Positions 1-5,645 of a stretch of DNA of 5,823 nt are shown here, piece by piece. The position numbers and the translations under genes were made by a program. Source of the stretch: a virus (lineage: Duplodnaviria; Heunggongvirae; Uroviricota; Caudoviricetes); IMG/VR virus record IMGVR_UViG_2695420372_000014; one strand, 5' to 3'. Position 1 is the stretch's first letter. Every line of letters starts with the position of its first letter. Under the pieces are notes generated by a model. That model saw only the letters and a list, made by a program, of their open reading frames with translations. It ran no database searches and was not told the DNA's origin.

Positions 1-41
1 TTTTTTATTGTTGTCAGCTTCCGGATAACGGGAGACGGGGT

Positions 42-257
42 ATGTACCAGATGGAAAAAATCACAACAGGTGTGTCATACACCACGTCAGCGGTGGGAAC
101 GGGCTACTGGTTCCTGCAGTTGCTGGACAGGGTTTCCCCGTCTCAGTGGGCGGCAATAGGCGTGCTGGGGAGTCTGCTGTTTGGGCTGCTGACATATCTG
201 ACTAACCTGTATTTCAAAATCAGAGAGGACCGTCGTAAGGCTGCACGGGGAGAGTAA
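42..257 (+). CDS. S: Class II pinholin, phage-21 S-type (71 aa) with dual-start motif
   Basis: The ORF begins [10 protein letters not shown], with Met1 and Met4 separated by a charged residue, as in the phage-21 S antiholin/holin dual start. Two hydrophobic segments ([19 protein letters not shown] and [22 protein letters not shown]) are followed by a charged C-terminal tail [13 protein letters not shown], which matches the S21 pinholin as I recall it. A G-rich Shine-Dalgarno-like stretch (gggagacgggg) lies upstream. It is paired with a SAR endolysin downstream, which is the expected partner. Confidence 0.85.
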
Positions 258-261
258 TTCA

Positions 262-1068
262 ATGACTCAAAACTATGAACTGATTGTGAAAGGGATCCGC
301 AATTTTGAGAATAAAGTTACGGTAACTTTAGCGTTACGGGACAAAAAACGCTTTGACGGTGAAATTTTTGACCTGGACATCTCGCTGGACCGTGTTGAAG
401 GTGCCGCGCTGGAGGTTTATGAGGCAGCAGCCAGAAGGAGCATCAGACAGGTCTTCCTGGATGTTGCTGCCGGGTTATGTGAAGGGGATGAGCTGTCGCC
501 GGAAAAGCGCCCCATAATTTTAGAGGCGCAGGATGTGTTGATAACCTACAAAGGAAAGCTACCGGGAAGAATTACTGGTTCTCTGAAGATGCCGCCGTCA
601 ACACTGCGGTCAGAAAAAGAGGCGTCTTGTCTGCAGTCTGAGTACTCCATTACGGTTAAAAGTGCCGGAGAGGAAGGAAATAAACGTTATTTTATTGCGT
701 CTGCACCTGATAAAGATCAGGAATGGGAGTGTAACCGGCCATCCTTTGTTGTATACGGAGATGGCGGGAAAATAACCATCTCAGAAAATGGGAAATTAAC
801 ACCGCCATCGCACCAGCATAGTGAGGCGCTCATTGAATTTGCCATTGATTACCTGAAGAACAATAAAAAGCAGGGGCTGATGAAGCGCATTGGTCGTTGC
901 ATGGGATATCTGCAGGTAGCAGCTGAGATTGAAATGATGGCCAGTGGTGCTGACAATGATGCAGTTGTGCTGGAGGCTCTTCTGCGTGATTTTGATAATA
1001 CGCCCTTTAAGAAAGCACCTGTTGACTGGATGCAGCCGGGGATGACTTATCTGAAAGGGCGTATATAA
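262..1068 (+). CDS. Hypothetical protein (268 aa), unknown function, inserted between holin and endolysin
   Basis: A long uninterrupted ORF whose ATG lies 4 nt after the holin stop, with a ggagag Shine-Dalgarno-like motif inside the holin 3' end, so it is likely translationally coupled to the late lysis operon. It has no obvious transmembrane segment or signal peptide. Spot counts of 60-nt stretches give about 37-42% G+C, against about 60% in the flanking holin and terminase. I recognise no catalytic motif or known family. Confidence 0.6.
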   Translation: MTQNYELIVKGIRNFENKVTVTLALRDKKRFDGEIFDLDISLDRVEGAALEVYEAAARRSIRQVFLDVAAGLCEGDELSPEKRPIILEAQDVLITYKGKLPGRITGSLKMPPSTLRSEKEASCLQSEYSITVKSAGEEGNKRYFIASAPDKDQEWECNRPSFVVYGDGGKITISENGKLTPPSHQHSEALIEFAIDYLKNNKKQGLMKRIGRCMGYLQVAAEIEMMASGADNDAVVLEALLRDFDNTPFKKAPVDWMQPGMTYLKGRI

Positions 1069-1077
1069 GGTGGCTCG

Positions 1078-1392
1078 TTATCTGTTGCTGGATAATCGAC
1101 TGAAGATGCGTTCTTTTTGTGTTTTTGCGTAATGATTGTCCCACTCACAATCAAGGTAGCTTAATTCTTCATTCAACCAGTTATTTATATTGGTCTTAAT
1201 ACGCATAAGCATGGGCTGTGTTAATGCTCTGGCGATAATGCCGAGAGTCACAGGTGTGAGATGTCCATACGGCTCAGCCTGAATGGATTTTACTGCATCG
1301 TGTTCTTGTGGGAGGAGTAAGAGGCACTCTGATTTTACCCGCTCATTTATGGCTTGCAGGCATAAATCATAATTATGTTGATCGTTATGCAT
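1078..1392 (-). CDS. Hypothetical protein (104 aa), unknown function, convergent with the 268-aa ORF
   Basis: Minus-strand ORF with an ATG start preceded by a gagga Shine-Dalgarno motif about 6 nt upstream (minus-strand reading ...agtagaggattaacc-ATG). The plus strand has no competing ORF here. A 60-nt spot count gives about 32% G+C. Its stop is only 9 bp from the stop of the 268-aa ORF. The composition is protein-like and soluble, with no family recognised. Confidence 0.45.
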   Translation of the reverse strand: MHNDQHNYDLCLQAINERVKSECLLLLPQEHDAVKSIQAEPYGHLTPVTLGIIARALTQPMLMRIKTNINNWLNEELSYLDCEWDNHYAKTQKERIFSRLSSNR

Positions 1393-1520
1393 GGTTAATC
1401 CTCTACTGAAATTGTCAGATATATTTCAGCCATCAGGAAAAACGCCAGTGTCCTACCGCTGGCGGGCTGAAGATTTAACATATCCAGGGATTCGGAACCG
1501 ATAAATCCTGATAAATATCC

Positions 1521-2054
1521 ATGAACACCAAAATCAAATATGGCCTGTCGGCTGCCGTTCTGGCGTTGATTGCCATCGGTGCGCCTGCGCCTGATATTCT
1601 CGACCAGTTTCTGGATGAAAAAGAAGGTAACCACACAACGGCATACCGTGATGGTGCGGGTATCTGGACCATCTGCCGCGGTGCCACAATGGTGGATGGT
1701 AAACCTGTTATTCCGGGCATGAAACTGTCGAAGGAAAAATGCGACCAGGTTAATGCCATTGAACGGGATAAGGCGCTGGCATGGGTGGAGCGCAATATTA
1801 AAGTTCCACTGACCGAACCACAGAAAGCGGGTATAGCGTCATTCTGTCCCTATAACATTGGCCCCGGTAAGTGTTTCCCGTCGACGTTTTATAAGCGGCT
1901 GAATGCTGGTGACCGCAGGGGAGCGTGTGAGGCGATTCGCTGGTGGATTAAGGACGGTGGCAGAGACTGCCGTATTCGTTCAAACAACTGCTACGGTCAG
2001 GTATCCCGTCGTGACCAGGAGAGCGCGCTGGCGTGCTGGGGTATCGACAGATAA
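1521..2054 (+). CDS. R: SAR endolysin (T4-lysozyme-like muramidase, glycoside hydrolase family 24 type)
   Basis: The N-terminus has a Gly/Ala-rich weakly hydrophobic segment (YGLSAAVLALIAIGAPAP) typical of a signal-anchor-release domain. It is followed by EGNHTTAYRDGAGIWT, which fits the E-x8-D-x5-T catalytic triad of T4-lysozyme-type muramidases and resembles phage 21 R / P1 Lyz as recalled. Confidence 0.85.
   Translation: MNTKIKYGLSAAVLALIAIGAPAPDILDQFLDEKEGNHTTAYRDGAGIWTICRGATMVDGKPVIPGMKLSKEKCDQVNAIERDKALAWVERNIKVPLTEPQKAGIASFCPYNIGPGKCFPSTFYKRLNAGDRRGACEAIRWWIKDGGRDCRIRSNNCYGQVSRRDQESALACWGIDR
1939..1946 (+). other. Chi octamer 5'-GCTGGTGG-3' (site 1 of 3)
   Basis: Exact match to the E. 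coli Chi octamer on the plus strand, inside the endolysin gene. Confidence 0.8.
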
Positions 2055-2143
2055 GCAGAATATTTTGCTGAAAAATAAGGCATGGCCACGCGGGCGGATA
2101 ACATGAAATCCTGCGAACTGGCGAAACGTAAGTGAATAAAAGT

Positions 2144-2352: not shown

Positions 2353-2820
2353 ATGAACCGCGTACTGTGCGTGGTCATCATTGCCCTGCTGGTGGCCTGT
2401 GGTGCGCTTAGTCTGGGGCTGAATCATTACCGTGATAACGCCATAACCTACAAAGAGCAGCGCGATAAAAAAGTCAGTGAGCTGGAGCAGGCAAATGCAA
2501 CCATTACTGATATGCAGCAGCGCCAGCGTGATGTTGCTGCACTTGATGCCAGATACTCGAGGGAATTAGCCGATGCGAGAGCTGAAAATGAAACTCTGCG
2601 CGCTGACGTTGCCGCTGGTCGTAAGCGCCTGCGGATCAACGCCACCTGCCCCGGTACCGTGCGTGAAGCCCCCACCACCTCCGGCGTGGATAATGCAACC
2701 GGCCCCCGACTGGCAGACACCGCTGAACGGGATTATTTCACTCTCAGAGAGCGGTTGATGCTGATGCAGAAGCAGCTGGAAGTGGCGCAGGAATATATCC
2801 GCACTCAGTGCCTGAAATAA
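2353..2820 (+). CDS. Rz: Spanin inner-membrane subunit Rz (i-spanin), 155 aa
   Basis: N-terminal transmembrane segment, then NHYRDNAITYK, DMQQRQRDVAALDA, RLADTAERDYFTLRERL and MQKQLE, closely matching lambda Rz as recalled. The Rz1 frame is embedded. Confidence 0.9.
   Translation: MNRVLCVVIIALLVACGALSLGLNHYRDNAITYKEQRDKKVSELEQANATITDMQQRQRDVAALDARYSRELADARAENETLRADVAAGRKRLRINATCPGTVREAPTTSGVDNATGPRLADTAERDYFTLRERLMLMQKQLEVAQEYIRTQCLK
2388..2395 (+). other. Chi octamer 5'-GCTGGTGG-3' (site 3 of 3)
   Basis: Exact match on the plus strand within the Rz N-terminal coding region. Confidence 0.8.
2573..2758 (+). CDS. Rz1: Spanin outer-membrane lipoprotein subunit Rz1 (o-spanin), embedded in the +1 frame of Rz
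   Basis: Translation MRELKMKLCALTLPLVVSACGSTPPAPVPCVKPPPPPAWIMQPAPDWQTPLNGIIS has a lipobox (VVSAC), a proline-rich region and CVKPPPPPAWIMQP...DWQTPLNGIIS nearly identical to lambda Rz1 as recalled. The true start may be the internal Met at 2588. Confidence 0.85.
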   Translation: MRELKMKLCALTLPLVVSACGSTPPAPVPCVKPPPPPAWIMQPAPDWQTPLNGIISLSESG

Positions 2821-3017
2821 GTTTTGCTGATGCGCGGTATTGTCGCCGTATCCCCGCATTAACAGAGACCGCAGCCCGACCGGGAGACTCCTCTGCGCGA
2901 GTGTGCGGGGATAATCAAAAACGATACACACCGGGGTTTACCGCGTTAACGGAGCGCGGCGTTGTCCCCTCATAGTCGCCTGTCCGGTGCGATGGTGGAA
3001 GAAACCGGACTACATTG

Positions 3018-3040
3018 AAAATGATAACCATTATCATTTT
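3018..3040. repeat. Perfect 10-bp inverted repeat (aaaatgataa / ttatcatttt) with 3-nt spacer, about 33 bp upstream of cosN
   Basis: Read directly from the sequence. The position corresponds to where lambda carries cosQ, but the sequence is not one I can match to lambda cosQ from memory. Confidence 0.5.
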
Positions 3041-3072
3041 GCGGGTCCTTTCCGGCGATCCGGGCCGTTACG

Positions 3073-3084
3073 GGGCGGCGACCT
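3073..3084. other. cosN: cosN cohesive-end sequence (12-nt GGGCGGCGACCT)
   Basis: The sequence cgttacg-gggcggcgacct-cgcgggttttcgctatttatgaaaattttccgg matches the lambda right-end/left-end junction as recalled, placed immediately upstream of Nu1 as in lambda. Confidence 0.75.
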
Positions 3085-3123
3085 CGCGGGTTTTCGCTAT
3101 TTATGAAAATTTTCCGGGGAAAA

Positions 3124-3233
3124 TCATGTCGGTACTTCTCGAACATAACTATTTGTTTTTTCTAATATCGAATCCGTAAAAGGTCCGACATGAAAACGCC
3201 TAAAAAAGTCATTTTCGGGCACTTTCATGTCGG
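3124..3233. promoter_or_regulatory. cosB: cosB-like region with three copies of a TCATGTCGG motif (direct 3124..3132, inverted 3185..3193, direct 3225..3233) around an AT-rich tract
   Basis: Three 9-bp repeats sit in a direct-inverted-direct arrangement between cosN and the Nu1 start, which fits the R3-I1-R2-R1 architecture of lambdoid cosB. The motif differs from the lambda R sequence as I recall it, consistent with the diverged Nu1 N-terminal domain. Confidence 0.55.
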
Positions 3234-3260
3234 CCCCTGTATTTATTGTGAGACTGTTTC

Positions 3261-3806
3261 ATGAAGGTTAATAAAAAGAAACTTGCCGAAATTTTCAACG
3301 TGGATCCGCGAACGATTGAACGCTGGCAGTCTCAGGGACTCCCTTGTGTCTCCGGAGGTGGTAAGGGCGTTGAATCTGTATTTGATACCGCCATGGCAAT
3401 TCAGTGGTATGCGCAGAGGGAAGCTGATATCGAAAATGAAAAACTCCGTAAAGAGGTTGAGGATTACAGGGCTGCCAGTGAGGCAGATCTCCAGCCTGGG
3501 ACTATTGAGTACGAACGCCATCGACTTACGCGTGCGCAGGCCGACGCACAGGAGCTGAAGAATGCCAGAGACTCCGCAGAGGTGGTGGAAACCGCATTCT
3601 GTACTTTCGTGCTGTCACGGATCGCAGGTGAAATTGCCAGTATTCTTGACGGGATCCCTCTCTCGGTACAGCGGCGTTTTCCGGAACTGGAAAACCGACA
3701 TGTTGATTTCCTGAAACGGGATATCATCAAAGCCATGAACAAAGCAGCCGCGCTGGATGAACTGATACCGGGGTTGCTGAGTGAATATATCGAACAGTCA
3801 GATTGA
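3261..3806 (+). CDS. nu1: Terminase small subunit Nu1 (gp1), 181 aa
   Basis: The C-terminal two thirds ([58 protein letters not shown]...[43 protein letters not shown]) are essentially identical to lambda gpNu1 as recalled. The N-terminal DNA-binding domain ([28 protein letters not shown]) is related but diverged. The 3' end overlaps the A start, as in lambda. Confidence 0.92.
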
Positions 3807-4842
3807 TATTCTGCGGCGTGATGTACGCGCCGGGCTGCGAGCCCTGTTCAGGCCGGAGCCACAGACTGCCGTTGAATGGGCGGATGCCAGTTACTATCTC
3901 CCGAAAGAATCCGCATACCAGGAAGGGCGCTGGGAAACACTGCCCTTTCAGCGGGCCATCATGAATGCGATGGGCAGCGACTACATCCGTGAGGTGAATG
4001 TGGTGAAGTCTGCCCGTGTCGGTTATTCCAAAATGCTGCTGGGTGTTTATGCCTACTTCATAGAGCATAAGCAGCGCAACACCCTTATCTGGTTGCCGAC
4101 GGATGGTGATGCCGAGAACTTTATGAAAACCCACGTTGAGCCGACTATTCGTGATATTCCGTCGCTGCTGGCGCTGGCCCCGTGGTATGGCAAAAAGCAC
4201 CGGGATAACACGCTCACCATGAAGCGTTTCACCAATGGGCGTGGCTTCTGGTGCCTGGGCGGTAAAGCGGCAAAAAACTACCGTGAAAAGTCAGTGGATG
4301 TGGCGGGTTATGATGAACTTGCTGCCTTTGATGAGGATATTGAACAGGAAGGCTCTCCAACGTTCCTGGGCGATAAGCGTATTGAAGGCTCGGTCTGGCC
4401 AAAGTCCATCCGTGGCTCCACGCCCAAAGTGAGAGGCACCTGTCAGATTGAGCGTGCAGCCAGTGAATCCCCGCATTTTATGCGTTTTCATGTTGCCTGC
4501 CCGCACTGCGGGGAGGAGCAGTACCTTAAATTTGGCGATAAAGAGACGCCGTTTGGCCTCAAATGGACGCCGGATGATCCCTCCAGCGTGTTTTATCTCT
4601 GCGAACATAATGCCTGCGTCATCCGCCAGCAGGAGCTGGACTTCACTGATGCCCGTTATATCTGCGAAAAGACCGGGATCTGGACCCGTGATGGCATTCT
4701 CTGGTTTTCGTCATCCGGTGAAGAGATTGAACCGCCTGACAGCGTGACCTTTCACATCTGGACGGCGATTACTATCTCCCGAAAGAATCCGCATACCAGG
4801 AAGGGCGCTGGGAAACACTGCCCTTTCAGCGGGCCATCATGA
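3781..4842 (+). pseudogene. A: Terminase large subunit A, N-terminal fragment: 329 native codons then a 24-codon out-of-frame tail caused by the internal tandem duplication
   Basis: GTG start overlapping the Nu1 3' end. The product matches lambda gpA (MNISNSQ...RPEPQTAVEWADA...HFMRFHVACPHCGEEQYLKFGDKETPFGLKWTPDD...SVTFHIWTA) up to nucleotide 4767. The reading frame then re-enters the duplicated segment out of frame (period 878, which is 2 mod 3), giving ITISRKNPHTRKGAGKHCPFSGPS and a stop at 4840..4842. Confidence 0.85.
3891..4767 (+). repeat. Tandem direct duplication, copy 1 (877 bp, internal to gene A)
   Basis: Base-by-base comparison with 4769..5645 at offset 878. The copies are identical except for 9 substitutions clustered at copy-1 positions 4059..4239. 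A single unmatched a at 4768 marks the junction. Confidence 0.95.
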
Positions 4843-5645
4843 ATGCGATGGGCAGCGACTACATCCGTGAGGTGAATGTGGTGAAGTCTGCCCGTGTCGG
4901 TTATTCCAAAATGCTGCTGGGTGTTTATGCCTACTTTATAGAGCATAAGCAGCGCAACACCCTTATCTGGTTGCCGACGGATGGTGATGCCGAGAACTTT
5001 ATGAAAACCCACGTTGAGCCGACCATCCGCGATATTCCGTCGCTGCTGGCGCTGGCTCCGTGGTATGGCAAAAAGCACCGGGATAACACGCTCACTATGA
5101 AGCGTTTTTCCAATGGTCGTGGCTTCTGGTGCCTGGGCGGTAAAGCGGCAAAAAACTACCGTGAAAAGTCAGTGGATGTGGCGGGTTATGATGAACTTGC
5201 TGCCTTTGATGAGGATATTGAACAGGAAGGCTCTCCAACGTTCCTGGGCGATAAGCGTATTGAAGGCTCGGTCTGGCCAAAGTCCATCCGTGGCTCCACG
5301 CCCAAAGTGAGAGGCACCTGTCAGATTGAGCGTGCAGCCAGTGAATCCCCGCATTTTATGCGTTTTCATGTTGCCTGCCCGCACTGCGGGGAGGAGCAGT
5401 ACCTTAAATTTGGCGATAAAGAGACGCCGTTTGGCCTCAAATGGACGCCGGATGATCCCTCCAGCGTGTTTTATCTCTGCGAACATAATGCCTGCGTCAT
5501 CCGCCAGCAGGAGCTGGACTTCACTGATGCCCGTTATATCTGCGAAAAGACCGGGATCTGGACCCGTGATGGCATTCTCTGGTTTTCGTCATCCGGTGAA
5601 GAGATTGAACCGCCTGACAGCGTGACCTTTCACATCTGGACGGCG
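4769..5645 (+). repeat. Tandem direct duplication, copy 2 (877 bp), contiguous with the native 3' part of gene A
   Basis: Same comparison as copy 1. The supplied ORF track shows identical alternative-frame ORF translations at +878 (4291..4608 equals 5169..5486; 4448..4747 equals 5326..5625). Confidence 0.95.

Follow-up and report, generated by a model that had tools for sequence, protein, structure and literature searches.

A YdfR-family fusion gene and a convergent antisense gene as one allele of a variable holin-lysozyme locus in Escherichia coli lambdoid prophages

The segment between the holin gene S and the lysozyme gene R was analyzed in a 5,823-nucleotide (nt) stretch of viral DNA (Caudoviricetes, IMG/VR record IMGVR_UViG_2695420372_000014), which is referred to at its full length as the window. 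The segment carries two open reading frames (ORFs), one of 268 amino acids (aa) on the plus strand and one of 104 aa on the minus strand (table 1). The window derives from the late region of an Escherichia coli lambdoid prophage; over nt 1-2183 it shares 99.8% identity with an E. coli AF39 prophage, which carries the antiterminator Q, an esterase of the nanS type and head and tail genes like those of lambda. With high confidence, the S-R segment represents one allele of a common, mosaic and hypervariable accessory locus in the lambdoid (Shiga toxin [Stx]-type) prophages of E. coli. Its plus-strand gene is a fusion variant of the YdfR/DUF1327 family, and the gene on the minus strand is a member of a narrow orphan family.

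An earlier note, made from the DNA letters without database searches, had described a convergent two-gene layout between an S21-type holin and a lysozyme, and the ORF map and the Pfam matches bear this out: both ORFs are present and their stop codons lie 9 nt apart. The holin displays a dual start in its translation (Met1 and Met4, as in S21 71/68), its TAA stop codon (255-257) is separated by 4 nt from the ATG at position 262, and a Shine-Dalgarno-like sequence, GGGGAGAG, which would act for the 268-aa ORF, is located within the holin 3' end (247-254). These signals had been noted before, as had the GAGGA motif upstream of the 104-aa ORF, and all were found as described. Neither protein contains a membrane span, again in agreement with the earlier reading (the highest Kyte-Doolittle mean over 19 residues is 0.87 in the 268-aa protein and 1.16 in the 104-aa protein). 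The contrast in guanine plus cytosine (G+C) content had been put at 32-42% inside the segment and about 60% around it, but the measured values are 45.6% for the whole insert (47.1% in the 268-aa ORF and 41.0% in the 104-aa ORF) and about 53% in the flanks (S 53.2%, R 53.2%, terminase 53.7%). The insert thus lies below its flanks by 7-12 points rather than by about 25.

Table 1. Features of the window. Positions are nucleotides of the window unless given as amino acids (aa).
Feature	Position	Strand	Evidence and remarks
268-aa ORF, YdfR family	262-1068	+	ATG start; Pfam and PHROG match
DUF1327 N-domain	262-483 (aa 1-74; aa 1-76 in the AF2 model)	+	Pfam match extends to aa 100
Linker	aa 75-159	+	AlphaFold2 (AF2); low confidence, probably disordered
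C-module	625-1068 (aa 122-268)	+	tblastn, architecture survey, alignment
104-aa ORF, phrog_1853	1078-1392	-	ATG start; convergent to the 268-aa ORF
410-bp cassette	1091-1500		104-aa gene and upstream region; bounds CTGGATAA (1088-1095) and CCGATAA (1498-1504)
Shine-Dalgarno motif GAGGA	1399-1403	-	6 nt 5' of the 104-aa ATG
Hairpin CGCCAG..CTGGCG	1443-1464	-	Putative 5' leader of the 104-aa gene; T5 follows, in the window only
Candidate promoter	1477-1505	-	TTTATC (1505-1500), 17 nt, TATGTT (1482-1477); position-weight scan
S21-type class II holin (S)	42-257	+	Pfam Phage_holin_2_1 ("P21 holin S"), E = 9e-33
Lysozyme (R)	1521-2054	+	Pfam Phage_lysozyme, E = 2.8e-25
Rz	2353-2820		Embedded Rz1-like ORF inside
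Nu1	3261-3806
Large terminase	starts 3781

The 268-aa protein matches Pfam PF07041/DUF1327 over aa 1-100 with 136.7 bits (cut-off 25, E = 3.2e-40) and phrog_1085 with E = 8e-146, and its close homologues are named "YdfR family protein" by NCBI. Residues 1-74 are 80% identical to YdfR of E. coli K-12 (P76160), which is encoded in the cryptic prophage Qin in the order essQ (holin)-ydfR-rrrQ (lysozyme). The two genes share the DUF1327/PF07041 domain, the 4-nt spacing from an S21-type holin and the location before a lysozyme gene. K-12 YdfR differs in being a 103-aa, single-domain protein whose gene overlaps rrrQ. Such single-domain proteins of about 100-115 aa are the usual form in K-12 and most Stx phages, whereas the window protein, at 268 aa, carries an extra linker and C-module and is followed by the antisense gene. 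The view that the segment belongs to no recognizable family therefore falls for the 268-aa ORF and stands for the 104-aa ORF with regard to Pfam, NCBIfam and PADLOC. Confident homology of both ORFs to well-characterized phage proteins routinely found at this position had been named in the earlier note as one result that would refute its reading; for the 268-aa ORF such homology was found as far as position and family are concerned, but the YdfR family is known yet barely characterized.

The domain layout was derived from an alignment of 30 relatives and an AF2 model. The N-domain is modeled as three beta strands and a long helix, with a predicted local distance difference test score (pLDDT) of 70-79, and the C-module consists of conserved sequence from near aa 122 with a predicted alpha/beta fold at about aa 160-268. 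N-domain and C-module are shuffled modules: an identical C-module is joined to N-domain alleles with 100, 95 and 65% identity to that of the window, and the C-module is also found without DUF1327 as a free-standing gene (213 aa in E. coli, 166 aa in Salmonella) whose product begins with a short coiled-coil-like N-terminus. Both halves of the 268-aa protein are under purifying selection, with a ratio of nonsynonymous to synonymous substitution rates (dN/dS) of 0.28-0.42. A profile search of 5.8 billion proteins recovered the C-module from Escherichia, Shigella and a few Salmonella only (41% identity between the Salmonella homologue and the window), with no Pfam domain. No match to either protein was found in NCBIfam, and sequence and profile searches of the PDB with both proteins and both family alignments gave chance-level matches only. 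The RefSeq Prokaryotic Genome Annotation Pipeline (PGAP) calls the intact 268-aa ORF a truncated pseudogene of 336 nt ("YdfR family protein, missing C-terminus"), and the C-module is therefore unannotated and hidden from surveys. ORFs misannotated in this way occur in O104:H4 2011C-3493, strain 55989 and AF39; the positions concerned, in no matching order, are 2378-3184 of locus L211, 12033-12839 of L005 and 2378-2713 of L212.

The antisense gene is equally real. Nine distinct variants of the 104-aa gene were identified, all of them intact and exactly 104 codons long; its subtypes share 79-85% DNA identity, with a dN/dS of 0.24-0.5 and changes mostly in third codon positions. Both ORFs of the segment are thus more than chance ORFs because both evolve as coding sequence, and the earlier view of the antisense ORF as a genuine gene in need of its own promoter is upheld. 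AF2 gives the 104-aa protein a confident five-helix bundle (pLDDT 88.2, predicted template modeling score 0.81), and the product is predicted to be soluble and cytoplasmic. Residues 1-103 match profile positions 57-158 of the 159 in phrog_1853 (E = 8.4e-50), a family of small phage proteins without assigned function. No match to the 104-aa protein was found in Pfam, and PADLOC-DB 2.0 contained no defence-system family matching either protein at E values up to 1. An exhaustive HMMER search returned only 20 clusters of relatives among 1.84 billion representatives; the seven that were looked up are all unnamed proteins, and the four of these with an organism are from Escherichia or Salmonella. 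One HMMER match, to a 6458-aa protein (P0142), was rejected as spurious since it consists of weak repeated matches to a highly repetitive sequence, and a scan of the GTDB representative genomes for distant relatives gave no confirmed locus. The gene is present in 95 out of 5426 E. coli genomes, always on the chromosome, and a set of 50,697 phage records includes three distinct phages (four records) that carry it. Its family is a narrow orphan one, confined to prophages of Escherichia and Salmonella.

The S-R junction was surveyed in 80 IMG/VR loci with a holin at least 97% identical to that of the window, 70 of which contain S and the start of R; as these 80 loci were the highest-ranking among more than 600 matches, the proportions are indicative only. 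Cargo is present between S and R in 60 of the 70 junctions. S directly adjoins R (1-4 nt apart) in only ten, so that the adjacency of the two genes, taken as the norm in the earlier note, does not hold for this clade. A DUF1327 gene with a product of 86-328 aa is located directly 3' of the holin in 47 junctions, a C-module gene without DUF1327 in 12, and other content in one; overall, the C-module is present in 23 junctions. At least 24 length classes of the S-R spacing were observed, and the architecture of the window was found in 3 of the 70. A non-overlapping antisense ORF is present in 23 junctions and these ORFs belong to at least five unrelated families. Besides the 104-aa gene, the antisense slot is occupied by phrog_2411 (90 aa) or phrog_18136 (87-91 aa), both of which come after DUF1327-only genes, by phrog_10490 (105-116 aa), which has a weak PADLOC match to the candidate system PDC-S51 (E = 1.3e-5), or by a 233-aa ORF. 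Elsewhere, 5' of HP1-type holins, DUF1883 genes are convergent to more distant C-modules (913-1203 in locus L216 and 1192-1482 in L217).

Among complete E. coli genomes, 4138 out of 5426 match some part of window positions 230-1530, and the match extends over at least 80% of this region in 55 genomes. The 268-aa/104-aa gene pair was also identified in E. coli O104:H4 2011C-3493 and in strain 55989. An identical gene pair is already in GenBank: the Stx2-converting phage 86 (NC_008464) carries gp05, annotated as "YdfR family protein", and gp06, a 104-aa hypothetical protein, in the same convergent layout between s and r, and both are known from annotation. The DNA identity with the window is 93.8% and the 104-aa proteins are 100% identical; in phage 86, an ant gene separates r from rz and the terminase is a different one. 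A literature search on genes located between holin and endolysin found nothing relevant. The segment had been interpreted as an unusual, horizontally acquired insert within an otherwise contiguous S-R pair. It does exist, but a YdfR-family gene after the holin is the usual state at these junctions, and the frame of an exceptional insert without family is not supported.

Phages with a near-identical 268-aa gene have an S-R gap of 1267 nt when the 104-aa gene is present and 857 nt when it is absent, and the phages with the shorter gap lack exactly 410 bp, corresponding to the cassette in table 1. The deletion junction lies within an imperfect direct repeat, CCG(G)ATAA. Since the last codons and the stop codon of the 104-aa ORF are retained, the variants without the gene are deletion derivatives. 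The antisense orientation, the precise presence or absence of 410 bp and the G+C content of 41% against 53% are features of a lambdoid moron, an accessory gene with autonomous expression. The favored interpretation is that the 104-aa gene is swappable cargo in an antisense slot, one of several interchangeable genes, because unrelated genes fill the same slot.

The main rival interpretation sees a dedicated pair in the C-module and the 104-aa protein, for example an effector together with its regulator, antagonist or chaperone. In the lysogen, the 104-aa protein would then bind or neutralize leaky C-module protein, or the transcript of its gene would serve as antisense RNA against the ydfR-family/holin mRNA. 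A C-module is immediately convergent to the 104-aa homologue in 43 out of 43 loci, which fits a partnership equally well. In a Salmonella prophage the pair is kept at 41% and 47% identity to that of the window and at a different location, 5' of an HP1-type holin and after Q and a ParE/HTH (helix-turn-helix) pair; the pair has thus moved as a unit. No terminator was found between the convergent genes, and therefore the minus-strand transcript would run antisense into the ydfR-family gene and the two transcripts would overlap. Furthermore, the C-module is often found without the 104-aa gene and the reverse was never seen, as expected of a regulator that depends on its target. However, in a junction with a gap of 1316 nt an 82%-identical C-module is paired with the unrelated antisense phrog_10490, more distant C-modules adjoin DUF1883, many phages tolerate the clean loss of the 104-aa gene, and in one locus (L210) only a 70-aa C-module remnant stands beside an intact 105-aa homologue. 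The co-occurrence could be due to nothing more than tight physical linkage, and a dedicated pair is considered rather unlikely. A type II toxin-antitoxin pair was rejected as a class, as the genes form no co-directional operon and no recognizable toxin or antitoxin folds were found. In the Salmonella prophage (L213, 2569-3269), the ParE-toxin/HTH pair and a DUF4406 gene are located between Q and the gene pair and make up a series of accessory genes 5' of the lysis genes.

As swappable cargo, the 104-aa gene resembles lambda bor. This is a small antisense gene at the lysis cassette that is variably present and whose expression is presumed to be independent of Q. Both genes lie opposite to late transcription and are patchy in their presence, but Bor, encoded after Rz, is a lipoprotein of the outer membrane and has a signal peptide, whereas the 104-aa protein is predicted to be soluble and is encoded between S and R, and the two proteins have no sequence relationship. 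The best promoter-like site of the Salmonella homologue, TTGAGT-18-TACGGT, is similarly placed to the candidate of the window: its -10 hexamer ends 85 nt before the ATG compared with 84 nt in the window and, as read by eye, both hexamers end 7 nt before the conserved hairpin. This positional likeness lends weak support to the candidate promoter. The hairpin is retained in five variants including that of Salmonella, with one-sided, G-U compatible changes only; as it displays no compensatory pairs and a fold z-score of -1.56, which is not significant, no RNA structure is claimed for the leader. A conserved terminator was ruled out for it since the T-run is missing in Salmonella. The spacer is only slightly more conserved (87-89%) than the coding region (82-84%) and therefore provides no strong footprint argument. 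An AT-rich palindrome (CTGAAAT-N10-ATTTCAG, 1406-1429, minus strand) directly precedes the GAGGA motif of the 104-aa gene; the variants from E. coli share it, the one from Salmonella does not, and it may represent an operator or a hairpin of the leader. Whether the 104-aa gene would be expressed in the lysogen is judged to be close to an even question, leaning slightly towards no.

Another possible role of the 104-aa gene, with expression in the lysogen, would be prophage defence or superinfection exclusion. The antisense orientation, the lower G+C content of 41% and the variable slot with its exchangeable small genes, one of which (phrog_10490) weakly matches PDC-S51, are in line with such a role. 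It is nevertheless judged improbable, as the 104-aa protein has no PADLOC match and a lone 12-kDa helical protein would be an unusual defence system. The protein described in a paper on Gifsy defence proved to be unrelated.

For the 268-aa protein, the likeliest activity is binding to ribonuclease E (RNase E) and RNase G, because its N-domain is 80% identical to the RNase E-binding part of K-12 YdfR. Targeting of RNase E by the window protein would have precedent, since the lytic phage proteins T4 Srd, T7 gp0.7 and phiKZ Dip bind or modify the enzyme and thereby change RNA decay during infection. T4 Srd reportedly binds the N-terminal half of RNase E, as does YdfR. These proteins act early to middle in infection, whereas the window protein is encoded by a probable late gene of a temperate phage; sequence similarity between them and the window protein is not expected. 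A 2026 study searched E. coli K-12 for proteins that interact with the catalytic N-terminal half of RNase E, and a fragment consisting of YdfR residues 1-72 was recovered three times in the two-hybrid screen (PMC13232886). Full-length YdfR gave a two-hybrid signal with Rne 1-597, Strep-tagged YdfR pulled along Rne 1-598 on purification, and the YdfR eluate contained DNase-resistant nucleic acid (PMC13232886). As the interacting fragment is conserved in the window protein, the latter may dock on RNase E late in infection, a tentative proposal drawn from homology and held at somewhat less than even odds. Late expression of the plus-strand gene together with the holin, as proposed in the earlier note, is probable, and K-12 essQ and ydfR are separated by the same 4 nt.

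A role of one or both proteins in lysis timing, for example through the pinholin or the SAR (signal-anchor-release) endolysin, is very improbable. The known antiholins and endolysin regulators (S107, S21 71, T4 RI) act at or across the membrane, and the antiholin/lysis-timing class was rejected for both proteins, which have no membrane or secretion segment by hydropathy and soluble folds in their AF2 models. The location between S and R, the coupling to the holin, and a screen that ties ydfR to envelope integrity (cited in PMC13232886) argue for such a role. Against it, 10 of the 70 near-identical holins work with R directly adjacent, the Salmonella pair is located outside the S-R junction, and the content of the slot varies far more than a core lysis function would allow.

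Overall, the observations are best explained by a variable S-R accessory locus that combines a YdfR-family late gene with an autonomous antisense cargo gene, a reading to which a rough probability of 0.6 is assigned. According to this proposal, which is built on homology and layout, the 268-aa gene would share a transcript with the lysis genes, its translation would probably be coupled to that of the holin, and its N-domain would bind, and hence modulate, RNase E (and RNase G) late in infection. A flexible linker would join this domain to a second module that is a separate gene elsewhere. The 104-aa gene would occupy the antisense cargo slot and be driven by a weak promoter of its own, independently of Q-dependent late transcription, like lambda bor. 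Several points weigh against this explanation, among them the constant pairing with the C-module and the missing terminator described above. The candidate promoter scores 7.7, which is at chance level (mean best score of shuffled sequences 8.0 +/- 2.0), and a consensus promoter scan of the minus strand of the spacer found no site. No expression reports were found in the literature under the O104:H4 locus tags or the protein accession. For the 268-aa protein, AF2 yields a model of low overall quality (pLDDT 50.6), and fold searches gave no match. RNase E binding by the window protein is extrapolated from the 103-aa K-12 paralogue, for which few transcripts were altered on overproduction and the signal of the full-length protein was limited to one Rne construct (PMC13232886).

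The genes around the segment are those of a lambdoid late region. The N-terminal segment of R is rich in Ala, Gly and Leu in its translation, which is consistent with a SAR endolysin. An Rfam scan of window positions 1-2100 gave no match. The gap between R and Rz (2055-2352) contains a strong plus-strand hairpin that resembles a terminator (2145-2177; 13-bp stem, then a T-run) and, at 2178-2351, a 57-aa ORF whose product includes a hydrophobic segment. As this position is occupied by ant in phage 86 and by three small ORFs in AF39, it looks like a second variable slot. Just 5' of Nu1, positions 3101-3300 are AT-rich (36% G+C), which is the expected location of cos in a lambda-like genome. Within the large terminase gene, 877 bp are present twice as a direct tandem repeat (3891-4767 and 4769-5645, 99.0% identity). 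The repeat period of 878 nt is not a multiple of three and the reading frame is therefore broken, with the ORF ending at 4842. The terminase region of the AF39 prophage contains one intact copy, and the duplication could be a real disruptive event or an assembly artefact.

Most E. coli genomes contain some form of the locus, which also occurs in many Shiga-toxin phages and the O104:H4 outbreak lineage. If DUF1327 docks on RNase E, it would provide temperate phages with a widespread route to alter host RNA decay when the cell lyses and toxin is released, and the fused C-modules and the antisense genes would constitute a pool of candidate effectors. A more far-reaching and unlikely view is that the S-R junction is a diversification hotspot in which an RNase E-docking DUF1327 domain is combined with exchangeable C-terminal effectors and lysogen-expressed antisense genes. 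If true, the junction would be a modular phage system for the manipulation of host RNA decay or for inter-phage conflict, and the 268-aa and 104-aa proteins would be one effector-partner combination that has also moved as a unit into Salmonella phages.

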